A DNA stretch of 57,006 nt. It comes from Sporichthyaceae bacterium (GTDB lineage Bacteria; Actinomycetota; Actinomycetes; Prado026). A model generated the notes under the pieces. That model was not told the DNA's origin, searched no databases, and saw only the letters and a program-made list of their open reading frames with translations. The stretch is from contig JANMWN010000085.1 in assembly GCA_031394045.1 (NCBI GenBank), positions 1 through 57,006 of the forward strand, given 5' to 3'. Positions 10,690 to 55,451 of the stretch are shown here, one piece after another. Position 1 is the first letter of the stretch, and the number at the start of each line of letters is the position of its first letter. Made by a program: the position numbers and the translations under genes.

Positions 10690-10735
10690 CGGCTCATAAC
10701 CCAGAGGTCGCAGGTTCAAATCCTGCCCCCGCTAC
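10690..10735 (+). repeat. att core a: 3' half of tRNA-Met(CAT)
   Basis: CGGCTCATAACCCAGAGGTCGCAGGTTCAAATCCTGCCCCCGCTAC covers the anticodon loop CTCATAA, variable region, T arm GCAGG/CCTGC and acceptor 3' strand. There is no D arm or acceptor 5' strand upstream. Confidence 0.85.
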
Positions 10736-10928
10736 AAAGTAAGTGCAGGTCAGAGGCATGATCACCGATCTTGGTGGTCAAGCCTCTGATGCTCGTGACT
10801 GCAGATGACCGCCGAATGGGCCGCGCATCTGCTGCGAAGCTCAAGAGCGGCCTGACCTCTGGGTCATTCGCCCAGTGGTTTTGGACAGGGTGAGGGAACG
10901 GGTGCCGTCTGCGGCGCGTCGCTGGATC

Positions 10929-11450
10929 ATGGGGACCGTGCGAGCGAACTGGGTTCTGGGAGCGGTCGGCGCACTAGCGGCTGCGCTGCTGGTCTCGAGC
11001 TGCACGAATGGATCCGTTGGGCCCCAAGGAAACTCGGCGCTGGCCATGTCGACGTCGTCGTCCCCGTCCGGTCCGGCAGCCCCGACGGCGACGGTCGGCG
11101 TTGAGCCGGCAACTCTGGAGGATCCGCGGGGATGCGCGGTCGCGGGGGAGGGGGAGGGGCCGAGCGCCATCGTGACGGCGTCGCTTGCGAGTCCGCCCCG
11201 GCAGTTCTCGGCGCTACTTGGGCAGCAGTTCGAGACAGCGGAGCTGACCGCGGTGTCGCCCGGACGGTCTTCGGCTAGCGACGGGCGGGTGCTGAAGGTG
11301 ATTGGGTTCCGGGCGGAGCCGAACGGGATGACGTATACCGAGTTCCAGGCTGTCGGTATCGGTCCGCCGTTGGTGACGGTGACGCGCACGAACGTAAGCG
11401 GGGCGACTTCAAGGTTGCAGGTGCTGGTCACCGTCGCCTGCCACCTGTAG
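10929..11450 (+). CDS. hypothetical lipoprotein
   Basis: The internal Met gives a signal peptide with lipobox (AAALLVSSC). Good third-position GC. No family recognised. Confidence 0.5.
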   Translation: MGTVRANWVLGAVGALAAALLVSSCTNGSVGPQGNSALAMSTSSSPSGPAAPTATVGVEPATLEDPRGCAVAGEGEGPSAIVTASLASPPRQFSALLGQQFETAELTAVSPGRSSASDGRVLKVIGFRAEPNGMTYTEFQAVGIGPPLVTVTRTNVSGATSRLQVLVTVACHL

Positions 11451-11509
11451 GCGTCCGCGGCTCTGGTCGGCTGCGACGTCTGGCCCAGTGGAGCTCGAGC
11501 CACACCCTC

Positions 11510-12162
11510 GTGGTCATGACTCGCCGCGCCCGGCTGTTGATCGTGCTGGGGTTGAACCTGGCCTTGATCGCTGGGTTGGTCGCGGTCGGTATCGCCGGGC
11601 ATTCGGTCGGACTGCTGGCAGCGGGCGGGGACTATCTGGCTGATTCGGGTGCCATCGTGTTGGCGCTGTTGGCGCTGTTGGCGATCTGGCTGCGGGATCG
11701 GCCCCCGACTGCCCGCAGACCCCAGGGCTATCCGCGGGCGCCCGCCTACGCGCCTTGGTGAACGCGGGGCTGCTGCTGGTTGTCGTGGTGTTGGGTTTCG
11801 TCGCCGCGGCCCGGCGGCTGCTCACAGGGACCGGCCAAGTCCACGGTCTGCCCGTCATGGTGACGGCGGGTGTCGCGGCCGCGGTGATGGTCGGCGGGGC
11901 GCTGATCCTGGGTGGCGACGTCGATCAGGACGACGACACCGACGCCGACCGGGCGAACATGCGTGCCGTGCTCTTGGACACCGTCGCGGACGCGGCCGCC
12001 GCAGCCGGCGTTGCCATCGCTGGTCTGGTCATTCTGGTGACGGGGGGTTGGTTCTGGCTCGACCCTGCGGTCGCCCTACTCATCTCCGCCGTCATCGGCT
12101 ACCACGTGGTCCTTCTGCTCCGCGACATCTCCCGCAGCCTGCGCCACCCAGCCAGCAGCTAG
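11510..12162 (+). pseudogene. cation diffusion facilitator (CDF) transporter, frameshifted
   Basis: HSVGLLAAGGDYLADS and ..GYPRA in one frame continue as RLRALVNAGLLL.. and ..LDPAVALLIS.. in the -1 frame. The shift is near 11740 in a G/C run. Confidence 0.6.
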
Positions 12163-12204
12163 CGCCCCGGGCCACCGAGCGCCGTAGCGGGTGAGTTCGC
12201 CTGG

Positions 12205-12582
12205 TCATCGGATTCCGCTGTCCAAAGTGATCGTGATGGTGCTAGCGCTGCTGGCCGTGACTTGGACGACCCGGCTGGCCAATGTTCGGTACCCGCCGGG
12301 TCGGGTTGCTGTCAGCGTGTAAGTCCCGGCCGGGAGCGTGAGAGTGAAGGAACCGTCGGGGGCCGAGCGAACTCGGGCGACCTCGACGGTGCCGAGGGAG
12401 GCGACAATGCTGGCGCCGGAGACGCGGATCGCGGGGCATGGCGACGCCGCCCGCTCCACTGGGCAACCGGGCGCGGCCAGCACTGTCCCCTGTACGACGG
12501 CAGTGGATCCAGACGAAGCCGTGATGTTCCCGCAGGCCGCGAGTGTCAGCGTGGCCACCAGGATGAGCAGGCCGTTCTTCAC
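12205..12582 (-). CDS. lipoprotein with carboxypeptidase-regulatory-like beta-sandwich
   Basis: GTG start gives VKNGLLILVATLTLAAC (lipobox). DGSFTLTLPAGTYTLTA is typical of CarboxypepD_reg-like domains. Confidence 0.55.
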   Translation of the reverse strand: MKNGLLILVATLTLAACGNITASSGSTAVVQGTVLAAPGCPVERAASPCPAIRVSGASIVASLGTVEVARVRSAPDGSFTLTLPAGTYTLTATRPGGYRTLASRVVQVTASSASTITITLDSGIR

Positions 12583-12637
12583 GCCTGGTTCGACGCGGCC
12601 CCCACGAATCGCGTTCCGAGAACGGACGGTCGAAGGC

Positions 12638-12669
12638 TTGACCTTCGAGTCCACTTGAAGGTCTACCGT
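12638..12669 (+). promoter_or_regulatory. MerR-type promoter with 20-bp spacer and internal dyad
   Basis: TTGACC (12638) - 20 nt - TACCGT (12664). The dyad GACCTTC-N10-GAAGGTC lies inside the spacer. The merR-like ATG is 7 nt after the -10, so the transcript is probably leaderless. Confidence 0.45.
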
Positions 12670-12675
12670 CGCGGC

Positions 12676-13494
12676 ATGAGCGACACATTGCTGATCTCCG
12701 AGCTTGCGGCTCGCAGCGGTTTCACCGCGTCAACGCTGCGGTACTACGAGCAGGTCGGCCTGTTGGCTGCGGCTGACCGGACACCTGCGGGCTACCGGCT
12801 GTACGGCGAGGCGGCGTTGACGCGGCTGCGGTTCATCGACCGGGCCAAACAGCTCGGTCTGCCGCTGGAGGAGATCCGCGAGCTCGTGGGGATCTGGGAC
12901 CAGGGCCAGTGCGCGCATGTCCAGGACAAGCTCCGGGCGCACATCAGCGCGCGGTCGGCGCAGGTGAGGACGAGGATCGCGGAGCTGACCGTGTTCAGTG
13001 TGCAGCTGGACGCCGCCGAGGTCGACCTGGCAACGCAGTCTCCGGACGGGGCGTGTGGTGATGGCTGCGGCTGCCTCCCCGTCCGGCCAGCCGGTACTCG
13101 GGTCCCGCAACCGGTCGACTTCACCCGAGCACGGCCGGAGCCGACCCCGGGAACCGGCCGGATCGACAGTGCCGCTGTGGGAAAGGGTCTCGCGGCAGCG
13201 ACCGCGGTGGCGTGCACCCTTTCGGTGGGCGACCAGCCGGCGCGGATGGGCGAGTGGAACGAGCTGCTGGCGTTGGCCGTCGACCGCGCGCCGGTCCCCG
13301 GTGGGCTGCGGCTGCGGTTCCCCGCCGACCCCGAACTCGCGGGACGTTTGGGTGACCTCGCGGTCCGCGAGCAGGCGTGCTGCTCGTTCTTCGCCTTCAC
13401 CCTGCACCTGACGCCCGGCGCGGTCATGTTGGACGTACTGGCACCGGAAGATGTGCGGCCGATCGTGGCCGAGATGTTCGGGATCCGCGCATGA
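12676..13494 (+). CDS. MerR family transcriptional regulator with Cys-rich C-terminal extension
   Basis: N-terminal HTH ISELAARSGFTASTLRYYEQVGLL, a coiled coil, a Cys cluster GACGDGCGC, and an extra ~120-aa domain with an ACCSFF motif. Confidence 0.85.
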   Translation: MSDTLLISELAARSGFTASTLRYYEQVGLLAAADRTPAGYRLYGEAALTRLRFIDRAKQLGLPLEEIRELVGIWDQGQCAHVQDKLRAHISARSAQVRTRIAELTVFSVQLDAAEVDLATQSPDGACGDGCGCLPVRPAGTRVPQPVDFTRARPEPTPGTGRIDSAAVGKGLAAATAVACTLSVGDQPARMGEWNELLALAVDRAPVPGGLRLRFPADPELAGRLGDLAVREQACCSFFAFTLHLTPGAVMLDVLAPEDVRPIVAEMFGIRA

Positions 13495-13814
13495 AGGCCG
13501 CCAGGATGACCCGAGGCGACAAGGGCGTGCTGGTGGCGGTGGTCGCTGCGTGTGCGGCCTGCTGCGCCGGGCCGCTGCTCGCGGTCCTGGCGGCGATCGG
13601 GGTGACATCGGCGCTGGCCGCGTTCGTCTTGCCTGGCTTGGCGGTGGTCACCGTCGCCGCCGGGGGAGGGGTCTGGTGGCTGCGCCGACGGTCCCGCGCT
13701 GGCTGCGTGAACTTGCCTGGGACCGTCGATCTGGCGATGCCCACGCTGCGTCCCGTTGGCGAGGTCCATGACGGCGCGAGCGCGTCCGAGTCCGCGACGC
13801 GACACGTCCAGTAG
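13491..13814 (+). CDS. MerF-like two-TM metal ion transporter candidate
   Basis: ATGA-coupled to the MerR gene. [22 protein letters not shown] matches the MerF-type CC-x2-P TM1 pattern as I recall it, and a second TM helix follows. Confidence 0.5.
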
Positions 13815-13899
13815 ACGTCAGTGGTGCGGGGTACAGCGATCGACGTCGAGCCGGTGTTGTGGTCCAGAGGCGACATGGCCGGTCTGCCAGGATGGCGAG

Positions 13900-14231
13900 A
13901 TGACGGTGGTCCGGTCGCTTCTGCTCTTCGTCCTTGCTGCCATCGCCGAGATCGGCGGGGCCTGGCTTGTGTGGCAGGGCGTCCGCGAGCAGGAGGCTTG
14001 GCCTGGGTTGGGGCGGGCATTGTCGCGTTGGGTGCGTACGGGTTCGTGGCGACGTTGCAGCCCGACGCGCACTTCGGTCGCATCCTGGCTGCGTACGGCG
14101 GGATCTTTGTTGCGGGCTCCCTCGCCTGGGGCATGGTGTTCGACGGTTTCCGACCCGACCGCTTCGACATCGCCGGCGCGGCGCTGTGCCTGATCGGTGT
14201 CGCGGTGATCATGTACGTTCCGCGCACCTGA
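13900..14231 (+). pseudogene. YnfA (UPF0060) family membrane protein, frameshifted
   Basis: [30 protein letters not shown] in one frame continues as [38 protein letters not shown].. in another. The shift is near 13995. Confidence 0.6.
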
Positions 14232-14264
14232 CCTCGACTGGCTTCCGTGGCTCGCGTACCGGCT

Positions 14265-15038
14265 CTAAGTCGGCGGGACCTCGGCGGTGACAGGGCTTGG
14301 CTCGCGGCTCACCCAGGCAGCCGCAATCGCAGCCCCGAGGTGCAGCAAGGCCACAAAGGCGGCCAACAAGGCCAGCCCGGTTCGGGACTCGTTGACCTGG
14401 TGGACGACTTCTCGGATGTCCAGGGCGGTAAAGACCAGCATCGTGGCCGCGATTGCCACGGCAATGGCGCGGGAGCGGACGGTCAGAATCAGTGCCGCGA
14501 ACCCGAGCGACAACAAGACGGCCACAGCGACCAGTGCCGGAGCTTCAGGGTTGACCCCGAGCAACGTCTCGGAGCTGACCTCCGCCGAGTGCGTGGCAGG
14601 GTTCTCACCCACCTCGCTGTGCCCGGTTTCGGTCGTCGACGCACCCGGTGTGGCGGGCGTGGACTCGCCGCCATCGCCGTCCCCGGTGGCGCTCGGCGTC
14701 GCTGTGGGTGTCGGCGTCGGTGTGCGGGTGGTCGGTGGTTGCGTGGTCTTAGGTATGGGGCTGGTCTCACCGTTGTCGCCATCACCGCCGCTAGCCTTCG
14801 GCGTTGGGCTCGGTGCGGGCGCCTGTTTCGACGGGGCGGTGGCGACCGGGCTGACAGCGCTTGACCTTGCCGAGGGTGAGGCATCAGGCCGCGCACTCAC
14901 GGCTGCGCCCGTGTGGGACGGGTTGGCGTGGGTCTCGGAGCGTGTGCTGCCACGTTCGATGGCTGCGCCGGTGGCGAACGCGGCAGCGGAGATGATCAGC
15001 AGCGCGGCCGTGGTGATCCGGGCCCGGGTGGTCAGCAT
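14265..15038 (-). CDS. secreted/membrane protein with Pro/Thr/Ser-rich low-complexity region
   Basis: Signal-like N-terminus, a long PT-rich linker and three C-terminal TM helices. Good codon bias. Confidence 0.5.
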   Translation of the reverse strand: MLTTRARITTAALLIISAAAFATGAAIERGSTRSETHANPSHTGAAVSARPDASPSARSSAVSPVATAPSKQAPAPSPTPKASGGDGDNGETSPIPKTTQPPTTRTPTPTPTATPSATGDGDGGESTPATPGASTTETGHSEVGENPATHSAEVSSETLLGVNPEAPALVAVAVLLSLGFAALILTVRSRAIAVAIAATMLVFTALDIREVVHQVNESRTGLALLAAFVALLHLGAAIAAAWVSREPSPVTAEVPPT

Positions 15039-15187
15039 GAGTCGCCTTCGCGTCGAATGGGGTGTCTTGCTTACAGGGACGCCACCACCCGATCGGTGAT
15101 TGCATCGAGTCAGGGGCTGCGTGCAATCAAGCTGGGCCTGGCGGCGTCCCTACCGATGACAGGCACAGCCGGCGGCGGGAGGTGGGC

Positions 15188-15754
15188 ATGGATAGCGGTG
15201 ACGATCACGAGGAGTTCCTTGAGGCGACGCTGCGGCACGCCGATCTCGTTCACGCCTTGGCGCGCCGACTCGCCACCCGACCTGCCGATGTCGCCGACCT
15301 CGTACAAGAGACCTACCTACGTGCCTACGCGGCCTGGGGTCGACGCCGCCCCGACGACCCGGGGGCGTGGCTGGCCACGATCTGTCTGAACGTGGGCCGC
15401 GACGAGCTACGCCGCCACGCCCGACGCAAGGCCGCCGTCGAGGATGGGCCGGTCCCTGACCTGCCCGGACCGCAGGACACCGCGGAGGCCGCGTTGGCGA
15501 ACCTGCGCAGCGACAGGGTTCACCTCGCCCTGTGGCAACTGCCGGCGGCGCAACGGGTAGCGATCACCTTGATGGACCTGTGCGGGTTCACCGCAGCGCA
15601 GGCCGCCTCGATCACCGATGCGCCTAGGGGCACGGTCCTGGCCCGGGTCCATCGAGGCCGCAAAGCGTTGGCGCTGCACCTGTCCGACCAACGAGACCTG
15701 CCCGTCCAGGGAACCGGCCGAGGAAGCGAGGCCAGCCATGAGCCACGATCCTGA
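15188..15754 (+). CDS. ECF-type RNA polymerase sigma-70 family factor
   Basis: Region 2 DLVQETYLRAY and region 4 LPAAQRVAITLMDLCGFTAAQAASITDAPRGTVLARVHRGRKAL. Confidence 0.8.
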   Translation: MDSGDDHEEFLEATLRHADLVHALARRLATRPADVADLVQETYLRAYAAWGRRRPDDPGAWLATICLNVGRDELRRHARRKAAVEDGPVPDLPGPQDTAEAALANLRSDRVHLALWQLPAAQRVAITLMDLCGFTAAQAASITDAPRGTVLARVHRGRKALALHLSDQRDLPVQGTGRGSEASHEPRS

Positions 15755-16481
15755 GCTGCTCGCCGCGCAGTACCTGGACCACATGCCCGAGCCGGCCCGC
15801 GGTGACTTCGAGGCGCACCTGCTGACCTGCGACGGGTGCTGGCGGGAGATCAGTCTGGCCCGCGAAGGACGCGAGATCGCCGAAGGAGCCCGCGAGCTGG
15901 CACCGGCGGGGATCCGCGACGACATCCGCGCGACGATCACAGCATCGATCACCGCCTCGGCGGCCGGACGGCCGAACATTCGCAGGCGTCACCGTGCTGC
16001 TCTGGTCCTCGCGGTGGTCGCCGTCGTCGCATTAGCCGGCGCGGTCGTCATGCGCACACCAGCGCAGCGGTCATCGCGTTCGTCCGCGGCCGTCGCGTCG
16101 CCACGTACCGCGGTGACCGCAGCCGTCGACGACTACCGGGAAAACGAGCTCCCCGGAACCACCGTGCCCGCGCAGAGCGCACCAGACCTGTCGAGCATCG
16201 GCCTGCACCTGGTCGGCGCCGGGGCCGGCCACCTCGACGGCGCGGCCGTGAGCGTGTTCGCCTACCGCGATGCTGCGGGGACTCGGCTGTCGGTGTACCA
16301 GAGCAGTCGCGCATTCCCCGAAGGCGCCGAGGCACAGCACCTGGGCGACGACGACGACGCCTGGACGATGCAAGCCAGTGGGGTGTCCGTGCTGTGTGCC
16401 AAAGGCGCCCATTCCACGCTTCTGCTCAGCTCCGACTCCGCCCTCGTACGACAAGCAGGCGTCGTACTGAACGTGATCTGA
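15738..16481 (+). CDS. anti-sigma factor (zf-HC2 type) with TM helix
   Basis: Overlaps the sigma gene end. HLLTCDGCWREI is a zinc-finger-like motif, followed by a single TM helix (ALVLAVVAVVALAGAVV). Confidence 0.7.
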   Translation: MSHDPELLAAQYLDHMPEPARGDFEAHLLTCDGCWREISLAREGREIAEGARELAPAGIRDDIRATITASITASAAGRPNIRRRHRAALVLAVVAVVALAGAVVMRTPAQRSSRSSAAVASPRTAVTAAVDDYRENELPGTTVPAQSAPDLSSIGLHLVGAGAGHLDGAAVSVFAYRDAAGTRLSVYQSSRAFPEGAEAQHLGDDDDAWTMQASGVSVLCAKGAHSTLLLSSDSALVRQAGVVLNVI

Positions 16482-16488
16482 GGCGGTG

Positions 16489-17091
16489 TCAGTGCTTGAG
16501 CGCTGCCCGTCCTTCGACGACCGCGTAGTACACCAGAACAAGGCCGGCTATCGGGTCGGCCCACCACCAGCCCAGCGTGGCGTTCATGGCCAGCCCGACA
16601 AGTACGGCCGTGGCCAGCAGCCCGTCGATCAACGTGACCCGTCCTTCGGTGCGCAGGACCGGGTTGTCCAACGCCCGACCCACCCGGGCCTTGCCCGCTG
16701 CGAGGGAGAACATCACAACAGCTGTGACCGCAGTCCAGATGATCCCGGCGGGACTGTGTCCAGGATGCCATCCCGCAATGAGAACGACGACGGACTGAAC
16801 AGTCAGGTAGATCGCGAGAGCAAGGAACGCGACACCGATCATCCGCAGCGCGCGCCGCTGCCGAGCCTCACCCGTACCGGACAGCTCCCAGATGACGACG
16901 GTGCTCGCACCGATTTCGATCAGCGAGTCCAGACCGAAGCCGGCCAAGGCCACCGACCGCGCACTAATGGCCGCCGCGGCGAGGACGAAGATTCCCACGA
17001 CGTTCCAGCCGAGGGTGATCCACTCCAGGGTGAAGCCCTGGCGGAGCAGCCGGTCTCTGTGTGCGGCGTCAATCGAGGTCACGCCAGTCAT
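16489..17091 (-). CDS. cation efflux-type transporter (short, membrane domain only)
   Basis: 200 aa with 5-6 TM helices. SVALAGFGLDSLIE and LIDGLLA motifs are of the short cation transporter family. Confidence 0.65.
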   Translation of the reverse strand: MTGVTSIDAAHRDRLLRQGFTLEWITLGWNVVGIFVLAAAAISARSVALAGFGLDSLIEIGASTVVIWELSGTGEARQRRALRMIGVAFLALAIYLTVQSVVVLIAGWHPGHSPAGIIWTAVTAVVMFSLAAGKARVGRALDNPVLRTEGRVTLIDGLLATAVLVGLAMNATLGWWWADPIAGLVLVYYAVVEGRAALKH

Positions 17092-17383
17092 CTAACCGTC
17101 GCGGCGACGAGCAGTTGAAAGGGGATGCGGGAAGGGGTCCGTGTCCGCTGGATCCATGCGTTGCCTGGCCTCGCCGCCCGGTCCCGAACGGAGTGTGGGC
17201 GGCGAGGCGCGTTGTCAGCAGCAGCCGGAGCTTGACGAGTCACACGCGCAGCCGTCCTCGCACGTGCAGGAGAGAATTGGCGCATCTTCTCAGCCGTTCA
17301 CCCGATCCTGGCCGATGCCCGCGGTGCGTGAGCGCCCGACAATCATCGAGACAGTCAGCCGGGATTTTGGCTGTGGCTCGCTG

Positions 17384-17887
17384 CTATGCCGTGCCGTGCG
17401 TTGCGACGTAGGCGGTGAGCTTGTCGAGTGCCATCGTCCATCCGGCGGCGCCGGGGGATTCCGCAGGGATTCCGGCGTGGGTCATGACCATCATGGTGCG
17501 ACCGCCGACGTCTTCGAGGTCGACGCGGACCTCGGTCGTCACCGGATGTCCCTCGGGCATGCCCAGGTCCGCCGGTGATGTGATGTTGCCGTTCTCGTCG
17601 CACATTGCTTCGGTGTAGACGAGTCGCTTGTTCTCGACGACCTCCCGGTACTCCCCGGTGAACCACATGTGCATCGGACCATTCGGGGTCTGGACCAGCA
17701 TGCACACCAGTCGAATGCCGCCGACGCGCAGGTCGATGTTCGCGACGGGGATGGTGGCGCCGTTGGGGCCGTACCAGGCCTGGAAGTGCTCCGGGACGGT
17801 CCACATCTGCCAGATGAGCTCCACCGGAGCGTCGAAGGTGCGCTCGATCACGACCGCATTTGGGGGGCGGGTGGTGTCATCGCTCAT
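17384..17887 (-). CDS. SRPBCC (AHSA1/START-like) domain protein
   Basis: VIERTFDAPVELIWQMWTVPEHFQAWYGP is a typical Aha1-like N-terminus. Overlaps the upstream ArsR gene by 11 nt. Confidence 0.75.
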   Translation of the reverse strand: MSDDTTRPPNAVVIERTFDAPVELIWQMWTVPEHFQAWYGPNGATIPVANIDLRVGGIRLVCMLVQTPNGPMHMWFTGEYREVVENKRLVYTEAMCDENGNITSPADLGMPEGHPVTTEVRVDLEDVGGRTMMVMTHAGIPAESPGAAGWTMALDKLTAYVATHGTA

Positions 17888-18242: not shown

Positions 18243-18267
18243 GGGTCGAGTCTCGCTTTCTGCCTCG

Positions 18268-47722: not shown

Positions 47723-48539
47723 GCGCCCGCTGCCCTCGTTCACCGAGGCGACCGGGAACGTCAAGCTGCGTCCCCTCGAGGACGGGGTACGGGAGCCGGC
47801 GGCCACGACCCAGCGGTTCGTCGCCAGGGCGGCCGCAGCAGCCGGCCGGCCGGCCGGGCTGGTTCGGGTGCTCGACGTCGGCTGCGGCCGGGGTGACGCG
47901 GTGGCCTGGCTGTGCGACCGCGGCTACGACGCCCATGGGGTGGAGATCCGCAGCGACTATCTGGAGCGGGGGCGCGGCTTCCTCGAGCGGGAGGGGCACG
48001 GCGCGGACCGGCTGGCCGAGATCGTCGGTGGCAGCTACCCGTACGCTGACGGCACGTTCGACGTGGTGCTGTCGGACCAGGTGCTTGAGCACGTCGCGGA
48101 CCTGGCCGGGTTCGCCGCCGAGGTGGCGCGGGTTAGCGCCCCGGGCGCTGTCGGGCTGCACGTGTTCCCGGCGCGCTGGCGCCCGGTCGAGGTGCACATG
48201 AAGACCCCGCTGGTGCACTGGCTGCCCAAAGGGCGGGCCCGCCGTGCGGCGCTGCGGACGGTCCTGGGCGCCGGCCTCGGCGCGCCGTACTTCCCCGGGC
48301 TCGGGCTCGGTGACCGGGTCGAGGTCTTCGCGCGCTACAGCGACGCCGAGACGTTCTATCGCCCGCTCGCCCGCATCCAGGAGGTGTTCCGCGAGCACGG
48401 TCTCGACTCGGACGTCGCCGGCCCTTCCCGCGAGCGCGTCGCGGCTCGACTCCCCTCGATCCCCGTGCCGCTGAGACCCGCTGCGGGCCTGGTCTATCGG
48501 ACGGTGTTCTCGGTCTGCCTGGAGACCCTCCGCCGCTGA
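47715..48539 (+). CDS. class I SAM-dependent methyltransferase
   Basis: Overlaps the Wzy stop. VLDVGCGRGDA (motif I) and FDVVLSDQVLEHV. Confidence 0.8.
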   Translation: MAERPLPSFTEATGNVKLRPLEDGVREPAATTQRFVARAAAAAGRPAGLVRVLDVGCGRGDAVAWLCDRGYDAHGVEIRSDYLERGRGFLEREGHGADRLAEIVGGSYPYADGTFDVVLSDQVLEHVADLAGFAAEVARVSAPGAVGLHVFPARWRPVEVHMKTPLVHWLPKGRARRAALRTVLGAGLGAPYFPGLGLGDRVEVFARYSDAETFYRPLARIQEVFREHGLDSDVAGPSRERVAARLPSIPVPLRPAAGLVYRTVFSVCLETLRR

Positions 48540-48561
48540 GCCGGCTGATGGCCAGGTGCCG

Positions 48562-48684
48562 TCCGAGGACTCCACCCTGCGACTTGCCGAGCGGGCTCGG
48601 CCAGCTCCGCCCAACCGGGATCTCATGGCGGGTGTCTCCGTGTCCCGGCAACCCCTCCGACCCCGATTTGCGATCGAGTTCTAG
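48562..48684 (+). pseudogene. remnant of an AbiEii-WYL C-terminus
   Basis: ..SEDSTLRL..MAGVSVSRQPLRPRFAIEF* aligns to the last ~42 aa of 54039..55211 (..SEGNLRL..IAGVSVTREPFQPRFAIEF*). There is an internal frameshift, and nucleotide homology continues downstream to core c. Confidence 0.65.
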
Positions 48685-48878
48685 CTCCGCCAAGTGGTTC
48701 GAGTAGCGCGAGTTTCAGAACAAGATCGTTTGTCTGCAGAATGTCAACAGCACGTGCAACGACGACCGTGGACGCCGCTGGACGTCCCCGGACTTCGACG
48801 GGCCGCTGACCTGCGAAGACACCTGATCCACCGGCGTCCAGGACCGTCCAGCCGGTGCGCGGACGTCCGTTGCTCCCG

Positions 48879-48923
48879 CGGCTCATAACCCAGAGGTCGC
48901 AGGTTCAAATCCTGCCCCGCTAC
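48879..48923 (+). repeat. att core c: 3' half of tRNA-Met(CAT), 1-nt deletion
   Basis: Same as cores a and b, but the C5 run is C4 (CCTGCCCCGCTAC). Confidence 0.85.
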
Positions 48924-48936
48924 GAAGTAAGTGCCG

Positions 48937-48969
48937 ATCAGGCCCATGATCATTGATCATGGGCCTGAT
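48937..48969 (+). terminator. 33-nt palindrome after core c
   Basis: ATCAGGCCCATGATCA-T-TGATCATGGGCCTGAT. The stem differs from the core b hairpin by paired (compensatory) changes. Confidence 0.45.
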
Positions 48970-49108
48970 TCGTTGTCGGCAAAATGTCAACAGCGGCTTA
49001 CTTCGTGCTCGGGTCAACCGGCCGATTCATGGTGGGCGCCTGTCAGTCCTGGACAACGGTGGACGTCGGTGGACGCAAGGGCTGGCTCGAGGCGCAGATT
49101 GGTGCGAT

Positions 49109-49134
49109 GACCTCTGGGTCGATTCCCAGAGGTC
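49109..49134. repeat. perfect 10-bp inverted repeat GACCTCTGGG-N6-CCCAGAGGTC
   Basis: The right arm is identical to 10 nt of the att core (CCCAGAGGTC). A related half-copy GACCTCTGGGTCATTCGCCCAG is at about 10853-10875, right of core a. Confidence 0.6.
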
Positions 49135-49406
49135 CCGCGTTGAGAGTTGTTGTGGCTCCACGCGGTCACAGGTACCACCTTCGTCTGGACCCGACGAAGG
49201 TAGGGCGAGCCACCGACGCTGCGTCGTAGCCCGCGCGCCGGATCCACAGGGCGCCAGTCGCGCGGGTTGTGCACAGCCGGGCCGCCGCCCCCGCGACCGC
49301 TTGCAACCACTTGCCAGTGTTCGGGAATGGCAGACATCACAGACCTCCCGCCCTCCGGCCCCGGGATCCGTCGGTCCGTCCCCGTGGCTGGACTTTCGAT
49401 CTCGGT

Positions 49407-49934
49407 GTGCCCGACCTCCTTGCGCCGTACGCATCCGCGTCCGCGCTCGAGGCGGATCGTGCGCTCGGCGCGCCTGTCGGCGCCGGCGAGCGATCGGGGC
49501 CTGGCGGCTCGATTGGCCTGCTCCATTTCGCGGGTCTCGGCGCGACCGAGGCTGCGATCCTCCTCGAGCGCCTGCCTCCGGGCGATCTGCTCGACAGGCA
49601 GAACTTCTCGCCCACGCTGGGCGCGTTTCTCCGCTCGGCCGTGGCGTACCCCGGCGAGGTCGAGCTGCACGGCTACTGCGTAGGACCGGACCGGGAGGAC
49701 GAGCGTGTCTCTGTCGAGGGGGTGCTGCTGTATGCGCACTCGGAGCTGATCATCGCCCAGGAGACTCCCTGGCGCGAGGCTCCTCATCCCGCGAGTTGCC
49801 AGTGCGCCGAGCTGTGGCGGATCGCCCAGCACCAGTACGGGCTGGCCGACGCCGAGTGCCCACCGGACGAGTACGGGCGGTTCCGTTCGAGGCGGCGACC
49901 GGACGAGCATTGTTGGCGGCTGTGGTGGGACTGA
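49407..49934 (+). CDS. hypothetical protein upstream of the primase-like/helicase gene
   Basis: Strong third-position GC in this frame through 49934. The start is uncertain (GTG 49407; the ATG at 49327 is in another frame). No family recognised. Confidence 0.45.
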   Translation: MPDLLAPYASASALEADRALGAPVGAGERSGPGGSIGLLHFAGLGATEAAILLERLPPGDLLDRQNFSPTLGAFLRSAVAYPGEVELHGYCVGPDREDERVSVEGVLLYAHSELIIAQETPWREAPHPASCQCAELWRIAQHQYGLADAECPPDEYGRFRSRRRPDEHCWRLWWD

Positions 49935-49994
49935 CAGGCGCAGAGTGCATGGCGACGCAAGCTGCGTAGCTGGGTCGTAGGTAGCGTTCTCCTG

Positions 49995-50381
49995 GTGGAA
50001 GATGAGCTCGCCACATTGCGTGCGGAGGTACAGCGCCTTCGTGCGGAAACCATGCGATTGAACGCATTGCTGAAGCTCACGCCGTCAGAGGCGGGGCCGC
50101 CGGGGCCAGCGCAGACGGGCGGCTTGGGTCTCCGTGGTGGACCGGTGTCAGTCGCATCTGCGCCGGCTGCGAAGGTGGCGTTCTTCGGGGCACTGTTCGT
50201 GGCACGTTCAGATGTGTACGCGGTCAGGTGGGAGAGCGCGCGCGGCGACCGAGCTGGTTGGATGCCCGCCGTCGCCGGTGGGTGGCGCCGTGGGATGACG
50301 GCACGGTCGGCGAAACATCTACCGCTGACCGCCGCGGTGATCACTGCGCACCTGGCCGGCGAGATTGACGTAGGCCTTTCT
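49995..50381 (+). pseudogene. primase-polymerase-like/SF2 helicase fusion, N-terminal fragment
   Basis: Coiled coil LATLRAEVQRLRAETMRLNALL, then FFGALFVARSDVYAVRWESARGDRAGWMPAV..LPLTAAVITAHLAGEIDVGL. It is cut by the ISL3 left end. Confidence 0.6.
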
Positions 50382-51842
50382 GGCTCCTCTGACGCTTCCG
50401 TGGGTGTCTGAGAGCCACTGACGGGCGACACGCCGTTCTCCGCCTACGGTTTCGAGTGTCGAGTTCGTCTTCGCAGGTGTCAGGGGAACGGCGTGCGCAA
50501 CGCAAGGTTATGGGCTGGGCTGCTGGGGATCGAGAAGGCGTCGATCGTGAGGATCGAGTACGACGAGGATGAGCAGGTTCTGGTCGCGCATGTGAAGCCG
50601 TATGAGCGGGAGCGCAGGCGCTGTCCGCAGTGCGGTCGGCGGTGCCCGGTCTATGACCGGGGTGAAGGCCGGCGCCGGTGGCGTGCCCTTGATCTGGGGA
50701 CGATGGTGGCCGAGCTTGAGGCGGACGCGCCCAGGGTCAGCTGCCGGGAGCATGGGGTGCTGGTCGCGGCGGTGCCGTGGGCTCGGCATCACGCTGGTCA
50801 CACTCGGTTCTTCGATGATCAGGTCGCGTGGTTGGCCGTGCAGACCTCCAAGACGGCCGTGACGCGGTTGATGCGGATCGCGTGGCGCACGGTCGGGTCG
50901 ATCATCACCCGGGTGGTCGCTGACCTCGATGCGACCGTCGATCGGCTCGAGGGGCTACGTCGGATCGGGATCGATGAGATCAGCTACAAGAAGGGCCACC
51001 GCTACATCACGGTGGTGATCTGTCACGACAGCCGCCGGCTGGTCTGGGCCGCGCCAGGCCGTGACCGGGCAACTGTGGGGGCGTTCTTCGACGCTCTCGG
51101 ACCAGAACGCACCGCCCTGCTGACGCACGTGTCCGCGGACGGGGCTGACTGGATCGCCTATGTGGTCGGCAAACGCGCACCCAACGCGATCCGTTGCGCC
51201 GATGCCTTCCACGTCGTCTCCTGGGCGACCGAGGCTCTGGACAAGGTCCGTCGGCAGGCCTGGAACGACGCTCGTGTGCTGGCCCGGACCGAGCCGAAGG
51301 GACGCGCCGGCCGACCTGGCAAGGACGGGACGCAAGCGTCCGGCCCACGACCTGGGCACGAGCGCGCCAGGGCACTCAAGCACGCCCGCTACGCGCTCTG
51401 GAAGAACCCCGAGAACCTCACGGCCAAGCAGCAGACCAAGCTGGACTGGGTCGCGGCGACCGACCCCGTGCTGCACCGCGCCTACCTGCTCAAAGAGGGC
51501 CTACGGACAGTGTTCGTCCTCGGCCACAGCGACGGACCCGACGCCGGAATCGAGGCCCTGGACCGGTGGCTCGCCTGGGCTGCACGGAGTCGACTAGAAG
51601 CGTTCGTCGATCTCGGCCGCAAGATCCGCCGACACCGACCGCAGATCCAAGCCGCCATCCGAGAAGACCTCTCCAACGCCCTCGTCGAGTCGACCAACAC
51701 CAAGATCCGCGTCCTGACCCGCGTCGCCTTCGGCTTCCACTCCGCCGAGGCACTCATCGCCCTCGCCATGCTCAGCCTCGGCGGCTACCGACCCGACCTC
51801 CTCGGACGCACCCAATGACCCACGGATCAGTCAGGAGAGTCC
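50382..51842 (+). mobile_element. ISL3 family insertion sequence
   Basis: Terminal inverted repeats GGCTCCTCTGACGCTTCCGTGGGT (left) and GGACTCTCCTGACTGATCCGTGGGT (right, reverse complement), about 19/25 matching. Single transposase ORF. No perfect 8-bp target duplication. Confidence 0.75.
50493..51818 (+). CDS. ISL3 family transposase
   Basis: 441 aa. MRNARLWAGLLGIEKASIVRIEYDEDEQVLVAHVKP..RRCPQCGRRCPVYD (zinc-finger region), ..DEISYKKGHRYITVV.. and the C-terminal DDE region are typical of ISL3. Confidence 0.9.
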   Translation: MRNARLWAGLLGIEKASIVRIEYDEDEQVLVAHVKPYERERRRCPQCGRRCPVYDRGEGRRRWRALDLGTMVAELEADAPRVSCREHGVLVAAVPWARHHAGHTRFFDDQVAWLAVQTSKTAVTRLMRIAWRTVGSIITRVVADLDATVDRLEGLRRIGIDEISYKKGHRYITVVICHDSRRLVWAAPGRDRATVGAFFDALGPERTALLTHVSADGADWIAYVVGKRAPNAIRCADAFHVVSWATEALDKVRRQAWNDARVLARTEPKGRAGRPGKDGTQASGPRPGHERARALKHARYALWKNPENLTAKQQTKLDWVAATDPVLHRAYLLKEGLRTVFVLGHSDGPDAGIEALDRWLAWAARSRLEAFVDLGRKIRRHRPQIQAAIREDLSNALVESTNTKIRVLTRVAFGFHSAEALIALAMLSLGGYRPDLLGRTQ

Positions 51843-53146
51843 GTTTTCTTCGCTCGTACGACGAAACCATCGCTGGTGACCTCGTTCTACCTCGTCGCAT
51901 GCTCGCGCTCGTCGAGTCCCTAGTGGCCGAACAAGGGTCGCGGCTAGATATGACGGACACACGTCCGGACGGATTGCCCATCGGGCTGGAGTTCCGCGGA
52001 ACCCTGCATGACGTGCAGGTGGCTGCGTTGCAGGCGGTCACTGCCCACGACCTGGGTGTCTTCGTCGCACCACCAGGTGCTGGCAAGACTGTGGTCGCCC
52101 TCGCCGCCGCCGCGAAGGCTGGGTGGCCGACTCTGGTTCTGGTCGATCGAAAGACGCTCGCCGACCAGTGGCGGGCCCAGATCACGGGGCTGTTGGGCGT
52201 TAAAGCGGGGCAACTCGGCGGAGGCCGAACCAAACGTGGCGGCGTCGTGGACGTCGCGATGTTGCAGACGTTGGCTCGCCGCGACGACGTCGCGGAGCTG
52301 ACCACGTCATACGGGCTTGTCATCGTTGATGAATGCCACCATGTACCGGCCGCTGCATTCGAGGATGTAGTGCGACAGATCCCGGCCCGCCGCTGGCTCG
52401 GGCTGACGGCGACTCCCTATCGGCGCGACCGGCTGGACGATCTCATCGCTCTGCAACTGGAGCCCGTAAGACACACCATCAGCGCGGAGGCCCCGTCGAC
52501 CGGGCAGCTTCCCGTTGAGGGCGTCGTCCCGGCACCCGAGCGCAAGCTCGTTGTTCATCACACCTCTTACAGGTACCACGGGGACGCCGATCCCGGCGCT
52601 CCTGGCGGAATGGCCGCGATCTACCGAGACCTCGTCGCCAACGACGACAGGCTTGCGCACGTTGTCGACGGTGTCGCCGAGGCAATGAGTCGCGGTCGCC
52701 ATTGCATGGTGTTGACCCAGTGGACCGCTCACGTAGACCGACTTGCCGCGGAGTTGACCGACCGGGAGTACGACCCCATTGTGCTCATCGGCGGGATGGG
52801 AGCCCGAGCTCGGGTGGCGGCCCTGGCCAGGCTTGATCCTGGTGTGGGTGATTCTCCGCTGCTTGTCGTTGCCACTGGTCCCTACGTCGGTGAAGGCTTT
52901 GACTGCCCGGTGCTGGACACTCTCTTCCTCGCTGCGCCCATCTCATTCTCTGGACGGCTGGTTCAGTACGCCGGTCGTGTCCTGCGGCCCTGGCCAGGCA
53001 AGGAGGTTGCCGAAGTGCACGACTACGTCGATGTGGGCGTACCCGTGCTTGCATCCTCGATGGCGAAGCGAGCGCGCGGCTACACCAGTCTCGGCTTCCC
53101 CGACCCCCGTCGACTCGAAGCCGTGGCGTCGAGTTCCGGAGTCTGA
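51842..53146 (+). pseudogene. primase-polymerase-like/SF2 helicase fusion, C-terminal helicase fragment
   Basis: Resumes at RFLRSYDET.. Helicase motifs APPGAGKT (I), DECHH (II), TATP (III) and QYAGRVLR (VI). The upstream part of the 650-aa track ORF is an out-of-frame overlap with the transposase. Confidence 0.7.
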
Positions 53147-53157
53147 GTGAGGCGGCC

Positions 53158-54042
53158 ATGAGCCGGAACACCCTGCTGGTCGACATCGCCAAGCCAGTTG
53201 TTCACTCAAGCAGCGGACAAGTGGTGTACTGTTGTCCCATGAGCGCGGGCATCTCGGGAAGATCGCGAGCGGACTTGGCCCAGATCACCGGCCATGGACG
53301 GCGATTCGTCACGGTCGCAGATGCTGCCGACTCGCTGAGGGTCGAACGGCCTGAGGCCGCCAGACGGCTGGCGCGCTGGGCTGAGCAAGGGTGGCTACGT
53401 CGAGTAAGGCGTGACCTCTACATCCCGGTTCCCGTCGACACGGTGCACCCGGAAGGGTGGGGCGCCGACCCGCTGGTGCTCGCCGACGCGGTGTGGGGTC
53501 CCTGCTACGCGACAGGCTGGACGGCAGCAAACCACTGGGGGCTGACCGAGCAGAGCTTTCGGACCACGGTGGTCAAGACGGTGCAACGGGTTCGTCGAAC
53601 CGATCAGCGGTTGCTGGACAACGACTTTCTCATCGCGCATACCTCGCCGGAGTTGCTGACCTGGGGGATGAAGCGGGAGTGGCGCGAGGAACGGCGGATT
53701 CAGATCGCGGATCCCGCCCGTACCGTGATCGATGCGCTTGACGACCTACGACTCGTCGGAGGGATACGGCTGGCAACGGAGATTCTCGCCGCCTACCTCG
53801 ACGCACACGACCCCGACAGCCTGGTCAGCTACGGCGATCGTCTCGCGAACCGCACAGTCTTCAAACGCATCGGGCTGCTTGGGGAAGTCATCGGGGCAAA
53901 TCCGGGACTGCTTGCTGACTGTGAAAGCCGACTGTCGGCAGGCTTTCCTATGCTCGATCCGACCCAGCCACCGGCTGGGATCCGCTCCCAGCGATGGCGT
54001 CTGCTGGTGAACGCTCGCATCGATGATCTGGAGCCTTCTTGA
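53158..54042 (+). CDS. abiEi: AbiEi family type IV toxin-antitoxin antitoxin
   Basis: N-terminal wHTH (FVTVADAADSLRVERPEAARRLARWAEQGWLRRVRRDLY) and a C-terminal AbiEi_4-like domain. Alternative start at Met 53239. Confidence 0.75.
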   Translation: MSRNTLLVDIAKPVVHSSSGQVVYCCPMSAGISGRSRADLAQITGHGRRFVTVADAADSLRVERPEAARRLARWAEQGWLRRVRRDLYIPVPVDTVHPEGWGADPLVLADAVWGPCYATGWTAANHWGLTEQSFRTTVVKTVQRVRRTDQRLLDNDFLIAHTSPELLTWGMKREWREERRIQIADPARTVIDALDDLRLVGGIRLATEILAAYLDAHDPDSLVSYGDRLANRTVFKRIGLLGEVIGANPGLLADCESRLSAGFPMLDPTQPPAGIRSQRWRLLVNARIDDLEPS

Positions 54043-55211
54043 TCCCGTCCCGTGAGGTGTTGGCGCTGCGTGACGAATGGCAGCTTCGCACCGACGTCAT
54101 CGAGAAGGACTGGGCACTGGGATGGATGCTCGCAGGCATTGCCGCCCAGCCAGCGCTCGCCTCGTGGGTGTTCAAGGGTGGGACCGCACTGCGCAAGTGC
54201 TACTACGAGACATACCGCTTCTCAGAGGATCTGGACTTCACCGTGGTCGAGGGCGGACCCGATGACCCCGAACAGGTGAGGGCGATCTTCGGTGAGATCG
54301 CCGAGTGGCTCGACGAGCATGCTGGCCTCGAGCTGGTCGTCGATGGCAAGTCCTTCTCTCAGCGGCGCAACCGCAGAGGAAACCCCACACTGATGGGACG
54401 GGTGGCGTACCGAGGACCGACGAACCCGCCGGTACTCCCCAAGCTCAAGATTGACGTGACCTCGGACGAGGTCGTCGTGAATCGGCCGGTCTACCGGCAG
54501 GTCCTTCACCCGTACTCGGACGCTCCACAGCCGTCGGCGGGCATCGCCTCTTACTCCATCGTCGATCTGCTTGCCGAGAAGCTGCGCGCTCTCGCCGAAC
54601 GGTGTCGACCGCGAGACCTGTACGACATCGTCTACCTCTTCCGGCATCCCGACCTACTCGGCCAGGCGACAGCCGTCATGGCGTCCCTGGAACGCAAATG
54701 CGAGTACGTCGGCATCGCAACTCCCAGCCTCGACTCGATCCATGCCACCCCGTTCCGGGCGGAGATCGAGGGCGAGTGGGCCAACATGCTCGATCATCAG
54801 CTTCCAAGCCTTCCCCCGTTCGCGCACTTCTGGGCCACCCTGGACGAGATCTTCGACTGGCTGGCCGAGAAGGTCATCGTTTCGACGCTTCCTCGGGCCG
54901 AATTCGGCGACCTCGACGCCAGCTGGGTCGCCCCTCGTTCGATGACGTCATGGCGAACTGGCGCTCCGCTTGAACTTGTCCGTTTCGCCGGGGCAAACCG
55001 GCTCAAGGTCGAGATCGACTACCGGGCTGAGCAGGGCCGGCAAGGATCCCGCGTCGTCGAGCCGTACGCACTGCGCCGGACCAGTGAAGGGAACCTGCGA
55101 CTGTTCGTCGTCAACGACTACGGCCAGCTCCGCTCATACCGGGTTGACCGCATCGCGGGTGTCTCCGTGACCCGGGAGCCCTTCCAACCCCGATTCGCGA
55201 TCGAGTTCTAG
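54039..55211 (+). CDS. abiEii: AbiEii/AbiGii nucleotidyltransferase toxin with C-terminal WYL-like domain
   Basis: 4-nt overlap with abiEi. FKGGTALRKCYYETYRFSEDLDF (NTase motif). The extra ~90 aa at the C-terminus, RVVEPYALRRTSEGNLRLFVVNDYGQLRSYRVDRI, is a WYL-type pattern. Confidence 0.8.
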   Translation: MIPSREVLALRDEWQLRTDVIEKDWALGWMLAGIAAQPALASWVFKGGTALRKCYYETYRFSEDLDFTVVEGGPDDPEQVRAIFGEIAEWLDEHAGLELVVDGKSFSQRRNRRGNPTLMGRVAYRGPTNPPVLPKLKIDVTSDEVVVNRPVYRQVLHPYSDAPQPSAGIASYSIVDLLAEKLRALAERCRPRDLYDIVYLFRHPDLLGQATAVMASLERKCEYVGIATPSLDSIHATPFRAEIEGEWANMLDHQLPSLPPFAHFWATLDEIFDWLAEKVIVSTLPRAEFGDLDASWVAPRSMTSWRTGAPLELVRFAGANRLKVEIDYRAEQGRQGSRVVEPYALRRTSEGNLRLFVVNDYGQLRSYRVDRIAGVSVTREPFQPRFAIEF

Positions 55212-55405
55212 CTCCCCGAGGCAGCACGACTAACCAAGTCCCACAAGAAGATCGTTTGTAAGCAGAATGTCAACAGCACGTGCAACGACGACCGTGGACG
55301 CCGCTGGACGTCTCGGGACATCAACGGGCCGCTGACCTGCGAAGACACCCGATCCAGCTCAGTCCAGGACCGTCCACGACTGTCCGCTGGCGTCCCGTGC
55401 TTCCG

Positions 55406-55451
55406 CGGCTCATAACCCAGGGGTCGCAGGTTCAAATCCTGCCCCCGCTAC
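55406..55451 (+). repeat. att core d: 3' half of tRNA-Met(CAT), one substitution
   Basis: Same 46 bp with A to G (CCCAGGGGTC). Confidence 0.85.

Follow-up and report, generated by a model that had tools for sequence, protein, structure and literature searches.

Organization of the locus

The window, that is, the whole stretch of DNA analyzed here (57,006 nt), is one entire contig of an actinomycete MAG (371 contigs, 3.84 Mb, about 70% GC). Four partial copies of the initiator tRNA-fMet gene (cores a to d) divide it into the islands listed below.

1..10689: island 1, left end outside the contig; ABC-2 transporter, cytochrome b, CsoR-type repressor, P-type ATPase fragment, integrase Int1
10736..31584: island 2; CDF efflux fragments, ArsR-rhodanese, MBL-rhodanese, DsrE, HD/LuxR protein, methyltransferase, MFS transporter, integrase Int2
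31631..48878: island 3; Wzx/Wzy polysaccharide cluster (sugar transferase, GT4 glycosyltransferases, Wzz, epimerase, flippase, sulfotransferase, Wzy, two pectate-lyase-like proteins), no integrase
48924..55405: island 4; AEP-TOTE/ResIII helicase gene broken by ISL3, AbiEi, AbiEii-WYL, no integrase
50493-51818: ISL3 transposase ORF in island 4, within an inserted segment of about 50378-51841
53158-54042: AbiEi in island 4
54039-55211: AbiEii-WYL in island 4

A core stands at either end of islands 2, 3, and 4. Copper, metal/sulfur, polysaccharide, and defence cargo had been proposed for the four intervals from the sequence alone, and these assignments were confirmed by Pfam. The match of the island 4 AEP-helicase is to the TOTE conflict-system family and not to RepSA. 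Parts of islands 1 and 2, namely the truncated ATPase and CDF genes, look decayed. The GC content of island 1 is 66.9%, and island 3 is host-like in composition (GC 71.1%, tetranucleotide distance 0.09). Searches with tblastn using Int1 and Int2 and with Pfam detected no integrase in islands 3 and 4, no conjugation or replication genes were present in the scanned ORFs of islands 1–3, and no excisionase/RDF, phage, or transfer function was recognized with PHROGs in the unannotated ORFs.

Half copies of the initiator tRNA gene

The cores correspond to the last 45 nt of initiator tRNA-fMet, from the anticodon stem/loop to the 3' end. Their positions are as follows.

10690..10735, plus strand: core a, initiator tRNA-fMet 3' half; between island 1 (attR side) and island 2
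31585..31630, plus strand: core b; junction of islands 2 and 3
48879..48923, plus strand: core c, 45 bp, acceptor run shorter by one C; between islands 3 and 4
55406..55451, plus strand: core d, one A to G change; junction of island 4 with a further island or the chromosome

The sequence-only reading had placed four plus-strand copies at 10690, 31585, 48879, and 55406, and all of them were recovered. Exact and mismatch searches of the window returned identical 46-mers at a and b and a third 46-bp match with a single mismatch at d, and the shortened copy c (CCCCC to CCCC) was seen by reading of the sequence and with blastn-short, so that both of the differences described earlier for c and d were found. 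No further degenerate copies were detected by blastn-short in the 57,006 nt, and none of 100 shuffled sequences contained a match to the repeat; no copy is expected by chance. The cores align to positions 31–75 of the intact 75-nt tRNA, which occurs at two loci on other contigs of the genome (C67 and C271/C240) and has the initiator marks C1xU72, A11:U24, and GGG/CCC. The earlier description of the whole 46-bp repeat as a tRNA-Met 3' half is correct for 45 nt (10691-10735 in copy a) and fails for the leading C, which is common to the half copies only, the real tRNA having G at this position. The D arm and the acceptor 5' strand are missing from the copies, as had been stated, but that strand reads CGCGGGG in the real gene, with the C1xU72 mismatch of the initiator type, and not AGCGGGG.

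A search for a complete tRNA at any of the copies gave none. ARAGORN found no tRNA genes in the window. The Rfam tRNA model gave borderline matches at copies a and b (29.5 and 30.7 bits; gathering score 29), nearly all of the score coming from the 3' half, and had no match at c and d. In the alignments at a and b the D arm is deleted and two of the seven acceptor pairs and one anticodon-stem pair are non-canonical, which rules out a functional tRNA at these positions. No half copy is a working tRNA.

The intact tRNA at the head of the array is not on the contig. Where an intact gene is visible, on C67 and in the locus L061, the layout is tRNA ... int(<-), and the intact gene is therefore expected to the left of the array. 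The sequence-only reading had expected it there, a prediction that fits this layout. The window is a whole contig with no join to C67 or C271/C240, and either of these two loci may head the array. A 44-mer of the core occurs nine times in the genome itself, 11 times in the relative G010, and once or twice in most relatives. The 3.8-Mb genome has at least nine att copies, located at two tRNA-fMet loci.

Integrases of islands 1 and 2

Two intact integrase genes lie directly to the left of cores a and b, starting about 165 bp away, and belong to islands 1 and 2 only.

9399..10523, minus strand: Int1, tyrosine integrase of island 1, 374 aa counted from M59, within an open frame extending to 10697
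30294..31418, minus strand: Int2, tyrosine integrase of island 2, with Pfam Phage_integrase and SAM-like domains

Int1 has Pfam Phage_integrase (1.6e-22) and SAM-like domains and matches PHROG 1 integrase (8.7e-71), and the alignments with its homologues begin at residue 1 of the 374-aa form. Int2 matches PHROG 1 as well. The motifs RWGEL..., HDLRHAH, and GHS...QKY are readable in both proteins, which are 93.5% identical. As judged from the coding sequences, their divergence (dN 0.034, dS 0.327, dN/dS about 0.1) indicates purifying selection, and both integrases are working-looking.

Homologous integrases were compared at 80 loci of Nocardioides, Actinotalea, Cellulomonas, Sporichthyaceae, and other groups of Actinomycetes. 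The same half-tRNA was present 160–200 bp upstream of the integrase gene, on the opposite strand, in about 60 of these 80 loci, with no intact tRNA there. The genes adjoining the homologous integrases elsewhere are variable cargo. Several genomes contain two such integrases 18–36 kb apart on one contig, and tandem pairs of the Int1/Int2 family are present in isolate genomes.

Attachment-site arms

Two kinds of attachment site are found in the window. Family 1 is accompanied by an integrase (islands 1 and 2) and family 2 is not (islands 3 and 4). In both families the core is flanked by a P arm on the left and a P' arm on the right.

10524..10689, plus strand: family-1 P arm, island 1; boxes GTGACCGCAG twice (10541, 10552), GGACGCC twice about 10 bp apart, CTGACCTGC (10618-10626)
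10736..10875, plus strand: family-1 P' arm (type R1), island 2 left end; hairpin GCAGGTCAGAGGC..., then GTGACTGCAGATGACCGCC
31419..31584, plus strand: family-1 P arm, island 2
31631..31851, plus strand: family-2 P' arm (type R2), island 3 left end; hairpin and AATGTCAACAGC box (31691)
48734..48878, plus strand: family-2 P arm, island 3 right end; TGTCTGCAGAATGTCAACAG box, TGGACG twice, CTGACCTGC
48924..49145, plus strand: family-2 P' arm, island 4 left end
55260..55405, plus strand: family-2 P arm, island 4 right end
55452..55530, plus strand: R2-like flank after core d

The short repeat boxes of the arms include GTGACCGCAG, TGTCAACAG, and TGGACG. In the family-1 P arms, positions 10538-10647 are identical to 31433-31542, and the R1 arm is homologous to the arms that follow the core on contig C44 and the intact tRNA on C240. 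Family 2 keeps a left arm of 145 bp and a right arm of about 220 bp; joined to the core, they would form an attP of about 410 bp. The box CA(G/A)AATGTC(A/G)(A/G)CA occurs six times in 3.84 Mb, each time beside a core. None of the boxes of families 1, 2, and 3 was found in the 80 integrase loci of other genera, and the arm boxes are, on this comparison, lineage-specific. The flank at 55452..55530 is similar to what follows the single tRNA-fMet of the relative G006 and the attR of G005; it may be the native flank on the downstream side or else an arm belonging to a fifth island.

Family-2 arms recur in two other genera (G005 and G010) and in 14 metagenome contigs; in 13 of these 14, the stretch of sequence covered contains no integrase homologue. 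The left boundary of the island 3 P arm is sharp and common to 12 distinct arms. The outer boundaries of family-2 arms in general are likewise shared around unrelated cargo, including TOTE primase-helicase, PNKP/RlaP, Wadjet-like genes, and the polysaccharide cluster. No AbiE or integrase genes were found beside the other family-2 arms in G005, G010, and the genome itself, and an exact search of JGI metagenomes with the left arm of island 3 gave no match.

An explanation that has to be weighed for this family is that true integrative elements are limited to islands 1 and 2, and that in islands 3 and 4 the arms and core act as homology anchors between which cargo was swapped by homologous recombination between strains, as in a defence-island hotspot. 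The absence of an integrase from islands 3 and 4 and from other complete family-2 islands agrees with this, the arm copies are 83–93% identical, which is enough for RecA-dependent recombination, and island 4 is collinear with the metagenome island L094 (93–96%) except for one internal module, so that recombinational swapping of cargo does happen. However, the arms are built like a complex attP, with phased short repeats on both sides of the tRNA core and the sharp outer boundaries described above, a complete core is kept at every joint, and family-2 arms share homology with arms linked to an integrase in family 1, L095, and L041 (for L041 by a weak blastn match only). Recombination between anchors is accordingly considered rather unlikely as the origin of islands 3 and 4, and site-specific integration is preferred for all four islands.

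Assembly and comparison with relatives

Many short contigs of the assembly (C44, C51, C240, C271, and C312) end in or near the repeat, as might be expected in a 371-contig MAG if islands of different strains at one tRNA site had been strung together through the shared sequence. Such a chimera is very unlikely. The assembler contig overlap was 141 bp, longer than the 46-bp core and than the longest exact run between copies a and b (110 bp), so the joints are not assembly guesses; they needed real k-mers with unique flanks. Contamination of the MAG is 0.18%, and the tandem integrase pairs of isolate genomes also speak against an artefact. No alternative junction contigs were found in the assembly.

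The flank upstream of the tRNA is syntenic in relatives and the downstream flank varies (G005, G006, G007, and G009). It differs in every relative examined, and neither a clean empty site nor a filled/empty pair was found among them; tblastx comparison of the flanks gave mostly noise in this GC-rich DNA. The sequence-only reading had held that the same gene order without the repeats in relatives would speak for an ancestral arrangement; islands 1, 2, and 3 were found as blocks in none of 30 relatives. This absence bears on the view that the arrangement is ancestral and non-mobile, the half-tRNAs being old pseudogene duplicates and the integrases unrelated neighbours. The host-like composition of island 3 and the decayed-looking genes of islands 1 and 2 could be cited for such a history. 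It is nevertheless extremely improbable in view of the regular pairing of integrase and half-tRNA at homologous loci, the near identity of the cores to the live tRNA, and the purifying selection on the integrases.

Probable serial integration at the initiator tRNA gene

The window is very probably an array in which at least four genomic islands stand in tandem as a result of serial site-specific integration at the initiator tRNA-fMet gene. The proposal that the repeats are att sites of this origin had been made from the sequence, and it gains support from the integrases at a and b, the pairing in about 60 of 80 loci, and the absence of islands 1–3 from the 30 relatives. Under serial integration, the attP core of each element would copy the last 45 nt of the tRNA, and the tyrosine integrase would recombine attP with the tRNA gene. 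At attL the tRNA would be made whole again by the copy that the element carries, and the half it displaces would come to lie at the far end as attR beside the integrase gene, giving the order tRNA-P'...cargo...int(<-)-P-core. Elements arriving later could integrate at the restored tRNA or at another of the cores, and each 45-bp half would thereby turn into a joint with the structure P(left island)-core-P'(right island). What we infer from this organization is the recombination as such, the sequence in which the islands arrived, and the integrase that serves family 2.

Islands 3 and 4 have a core and an arm at both ends but carry no integrase, and this makes them CIME-like, non-autonomous elements that would move only via an integrase from a neighbour or from elsewhere. 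The Int2-bearing island 2 adjoins island 3. Their entry may have involved an integrase of their own that was later lost, an integrase acting in trans, or arm–arm recombination. With cores c and d mutated and islands 3 and 4 lacking an integrase, part of the array may now be fixed.

It is conceivable, though somewhat short of an even chance, that family 2 represents, rather than decayed remnants, a lineage of proliferating integrase-less cassettes, bounded by the two halves of the attP of about 410 bp, each with one defence or surface-polysaccharide module and shuffled into and out of tRNA-fMet arrays by an integrase in trans. Cassettes shuffled in this way would be somewhat integron-like, with the tRNA gene as platform. 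Points that fit the cassette reading are the common arm boundary, the unrelated cargos, the several copies per genome, and the occurrence in three genera and 14 metagenome contigs.

Comparison with known systems

The gain of islands via site-specific integrases is a well-known route of gene acquisition in bacteria. The array described here is a case of tandem accretion with CIME-like islands, a known kind that is unusually crowded at this locus. In the ICESt1/ICESt3 family of Streptococcus thermophilus, elements of one att specificity stack head to tail (Pavlovic 2004, Bellanger 2011; PMC5704250), and CIMEs are defined by the loss of integration and transfer genes with attL and attR kept (PMC5704250). 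Islands 3 and 4 share this structure, with att ends kept and integrase and transfer genes absent. The target differs from that of ICESt1/ICESt3, being an actinomycete initiator tRNA gene, and no conjugation module was seen in the window. In addition, family 2 is an integrase-less lineage with one arm boundary and many cargos across genera and metagenomes, and not the one-off decay of a neighbouring ICE.

Tandem pairs are also known among the AICEs (Fean5518/Fean5534 and Sav3708/Sav3728), and Faln5456 is located at tRNA-Met (PMC3218068). The islands resemble AICEs in the tyrosine integrase, the tRNA 3'-end target, the order att-...-int-att with int beside attR, and the tandem arrays (PMC3218068). 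No Rep (RepSA/prim-pol) or FtsK/SpoIIIE-type Tra was found in the scanned ORFs of islands 1–4, and AICE membership was rejected because rep and tra genes are absent. This absence, together with the variable cargo beside homologous integrases, identifies the elements as plain genomic islands or IME-like elements rather than AICEs. The tycheposons and additive islands of Prochlorococcus (bioRxiv 10.1101/2020.12.28.424599) belong to another phylum and integrase lineage, and no tycheposon replication module was seen here. For the tandem ssrA islands of Dehalococcoides, successive site-specific integration events at one small RNA gene, at its 3' end, are reported, with direct repeats between islands (PMC3146451); this mode of integration is shared, the target being tmRNA there and tRNA here. 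A literature search for the initiator tRNA as an integration site gave nothing specific.

Overall, an uncultured actinomycete gathers metal-resistance, sulfur, surface-polysaccharide, and anti-phage genes at a single essential gene, that of the initiator tRNA, which acts as their docking point. The integrase family is widespread in Actinomycetes and its 45-bp target is very conserved, so that it could be of use as a site-specific integration tool for these bacteria. If family 2 is truly mobilized in trans, it would offer a simple example, open to testing, of defence systems being spread by non-autonomous islands.

Half-tRNA Repeats and Intact tRNA Genes

The sequence-only reading had described four direct copies of a tRNA-Met 3' half, and exact search and blastn have located all four on the forward strand, where they separate islands 1 (1–10689), 2 (10736–31584), 3 (31631–48878) and 4 (48924–55405):

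10690–10735, + strand, copy a, exact 46-bp match
31585–31630, + strand, copy b, exact 46-bp match
48879–48923, + strand, copy c, 45 bp, one C lost from the CCCCC run of the acceptor strand
55406–55451, + strand, copy d, 46 bp with one A to G change

The 46-bp repeat gave no match in 100 shuffles, and low-stringency blastn with the whole tRNA as query found no further copy in the window. As had been claimed, none of the copies is a complete tRNA. ARAGORN detected no tRNA gene in the window, and the Rfam tRNA model scored copies a and b at 29.5 and 30.7 bits, barely above the gathering score of 29. Both were rejected as tRNA genes because the Rfam alignments lack the D arm, have mispairs at two of the seven acceptor positions and at one position of the anticodon stem, and draw nearly all of their score from the 3' half.

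The window is contig C30 in full, and the genome to which it belongs (371 contigs, 3.84 Mb, 70.2% GC) carries intact 75-nt tRNA(CAT) genes on contig C67 and on C271/C240, two contigs that overlap by 141 bp. The tRNA has C1 opposite U72, A11:U24 and an anticodon stem closed by three G:C pairs, which are marks of bacterial initiator tRNAs. The half copies correspond to its positions 31–75, and for these the assignment to tRNA-Met stands; it fails for the first C (10690), which is common to the half copies only, the tRNA having G at that place. Extra half copies occur on C44, C51 and C312; C172 has a shorter one, the one on C25 is truncated, and C173 contains a diverged piece of the T arm. A 44-mer of this tRNA-fMet is present once or twice in most of 30 relatives examined, nine times in this genome and eleven times in G010, a genome of the same family; the eleven copies in G010 are spread over many short contigs, which indicates a second heavily loaded array there. 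On C240, a large protein with a UvrD-like helicase C-terminal domain (593–1873, minus strand) opens an island directly after the intact tRNA-fMet and could belong to a conjugative element as its relaxase/helicase.

Integrases and Their Relatives

Integrase genes lie beside two of the copies:

9399–10697, minus strand, island 1 integrase (Int1) open frame, directly left of copy a
30294–31592, minus strand, island 2 integrase (Int2) open frame, directly left of copy b

Both proteins contain a tyrosine recombinase catalytic domain and SAM-like N-terminal domains and match the PHROG 1 integrase. Because homologues align from M59, this residue is likely the start of both, giving 374 aa (9399–10523 and 30294–31418). 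Int1 and Int2 are 93.5% identical (dN 0.034, dS 0.327), and therefore both have been kept by selection. No excisionase was recognised. Homology between islands 1 and 2 is limited to the integrase, the arm, the half-tRNA core and about 40 bp beyond (9412–10774 versus 30307–31670). Between integrase start and core, 110 bp of non-coding arm are perfectly identical (10538–10647 and 31433–31542) though the adjoining genes differ at dS 0.33, which points either to recent gene conversion or to strong constraint, as on operator or arm sites. Chimeric assembly is an unlikely source of the array, since the assembler overlap of 141 bp exceeds both the core and this 110-bp identity, the longest between a and b, and contamination is 0.18%. 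A further integrase beside the half-tRNA of C51 is interrupted by an ISL3 transposase after about 107 codons; in its arm, CGGTGCCGGTC occurs twice as a third type of box.

A scan of one genome per species has yielded 80 loci with Int1 relatives (51–94% identity) in Nocardioides, Actinotalea, Cellulomonas, Sporichthyaceae, Frankiales, Mycobacteriales and others. About 60 of them have the same half-tRNA on the opposite strand, 160–200 bp upstream of where the integrase begins, and ARAGORN found no intact tRNA at those sites. Variable cargo adjoins these integrases, including SNF2 helicase, IS110, ABC transporter, AbiEi, DUF4132 and luciferase-like oxidoreductase genes. Two such integrases occur 18–36 kb apart on one contig in Nocardioides sp. 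Root682, Actinotalea ferrariae and N. pelophilus, so tandem arrays are common for the Int1 family. Where an intact tRNA is visible (a locus of another genome, L061, and C67), the order is tRNA, cargo, and integrase facing back to the tRNA. The intact gene should therefore lie left of the window, where it had been predicted. The order att-...-int-att has been described for actinomycete elements (PMC3218068).

Cargo and Distribution of the Islands

Pfam matches agree with the cargo classes first assigned to the four intervals (copper, metal/sulfur, polysaccharide and defence):

1–10689, island 1: ABC-2 transporter, cytochrome b, CsoR, P-type ATPase fragment
10736–31584, island 2: CDF fragments, ArsR-rhodanese, MBL-rhodanese, DsrE, HD/LuxR protein, methyltransferase, MFS transporter
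31631–48878, island 3: complete Wzx/Wzy polysaccharide cluster and sulfotransferase
48924–55405, island 4: AEP-TOTE/ResIII helicase gene interrupted by an ISL3 element, followed by AbiEi and AbiEii-WYL
49995–53146, island 4: split helicase gene region, with ISL3 transposase ORF at 50493–51818 and inserted segment at about 50378–51841
54039–55211, island 4: AbiEii toxin with C-terminal WYL domain (Pfam 1.8e-08)

The P-type ATPase and cation-efflux (CDF) ORFs at 5508–6185, 11755–12162 and 16489–17091 are partial, fragment-like Pfam matches; a fuller copper cluster (78% identity) is present on C97. Metagenome contigs L094 and L104 have an intact copy of the helicase gene (93–96% identical), relative to which that of island 4 lacks about 700 bp. 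The 280 bp or so left of core c (48598–48878) are homologous to the end of the AbiEii gene and its arm, and therefore island 3 formerly had this module at its end.

GC content is 66.9, 68.3, 71.1 and 65.8% in islands 1 to 4 and 70.2% in the genome, so that islands 1 and 4 stand out from the host and island 3 resembles it. Islands 1, 2 and 3 were not found as blocks in the 30 relatives, which gave scattered single-gene matches only. The upstream flank of the tRNA (C271) is syntenic in the relatives G005, G006, G007, G009 and G022, and the downstream side is different in each. An ancestral, non-mobile arrangement is contradicted by this absence and by the family-wide integrase–half-tRNA link. 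The integrases beside copies a and b, the half-tRNA at about 60 of 80 homologous loci and the missing blocks thus support the proposal of att repeats left by serial integration into tRNA-Met.

Two att Families

Each joint consists of the P arm of the left island (left of the core), the core, and the P' arm of the right island (right of the core). Paired GTGACCGCAG-type boxes on both arms characterise family 1, whose P arms stand at a and b and whose P' arms follow a, C44 and the intact tRNA of C240. In family 2, with P arms at c, d, C44, C312 and C25 and P' arms following b, c and C312, both arms carry the box CA(G/A)AATGTC(A/G)(A/G)CA, which the genome has at just six places, every time beside a core. 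A pair of GGACG(C/T)C boxes, spaced by about 10 bp, is common to both families, as is a CTGACCTGC box, whose inverse, GCAGGTCAG, opens a hairpin just past the tRNA end. In all, the genome has 21 instances of the hairpin box GCAGGTCAG(A/G)G(G/C)C (e.g., window 10745 and 55461; C26:3563, C288:3799, C144:1692), several of them beside unrelated integrase genes, and the box also stands after tRNA-fMet in numerous other actinomycetes; its role could be that of a general terminator or of a palindrome associated with recombination. The att site on C25 is truncated: after its family-2 P arm, the core breaks off at about nt 17 and gives way to unrelated sequence.

On this reading, island 2 belongs to family 1 and has an integrase, and islands 3 and 4 belong to family 2 and have none. 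A further family-2 island without integrase runs from C312 into C44 (79-bp overlap) and carries DUF2397, DUF2398 and a 1331-aa SMC-like protein (ATPase), presumably a Wadjet-type defence set.

The family-2 P arm is also present in G005 and G010, which represent two further genera of this bacterial family, and in 14 JGI metagenome contigs, 13 of which lack an integrase homologue in the sequence examined. Two complete islands bounded by family-2 arms have no integrase; one of 5.5 kb carries the intact AEP-TOTE/helicase and one of 7.6 kb carries PNKP ligase, RlaP and an AAA ATPase. Island 4 is collinear with the 5.5-kb island (93–96%), with about 700 bp of its own helicase gene replaced by ISL3; the right-hand module is AbiE in island 4 and small ORFs in the metagenome island. 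Among twelve distinct P arms, pairwise identity rises from 0.2–0.4 to 0.7–0.85 at 48734 and stays high until the core, and conservation of the P' arm extends over about 220 bp and ends near 49145. An attP of about 410 bp would result from joining the two arms and core. Arms so conserved could also serve homologous recombination, by which islands 3 and 4 would turn over without any integrase, an explanation we regard as rather improbable. Family 2 probably descends from an integrase-bearing element, because metagenome contig L095 encodes an integrase 60% identical to Int1 with an adjoining arm that carries a paired TGTCAAC box, and the integrase-linked arm of a Nocardioides locus (L041) weakly matches family 2.

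Serial site-specific integration remains the best reading of the array. The integrase would recombine the attP of the element with the tRNA, the 45 nt of the element would restore the tRNA gene, the displaced half would mark the distal end, and repeated rounds would stack islands. Continuing recombination here, the arrival order and the integrase that acts on family 2 are inferred rather than observed. Islands without integrase that keep both att sites match the definition of CIMEs, and the stacking of islands matches "accretion" (PMC5704250). Pairs of AICEs in Frankia and Streptomyces have been reported to excise singly and jointly (PMC3218068), and Prochlorococcus elements stack in the same way as the islands here. 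Overall, the array represents a known phenomenon, the tandem accretion of islands, some of them CIME-like, at a tRNA gene. Its integrase and att family appear to be previously undescribed, and it is unusually dense.
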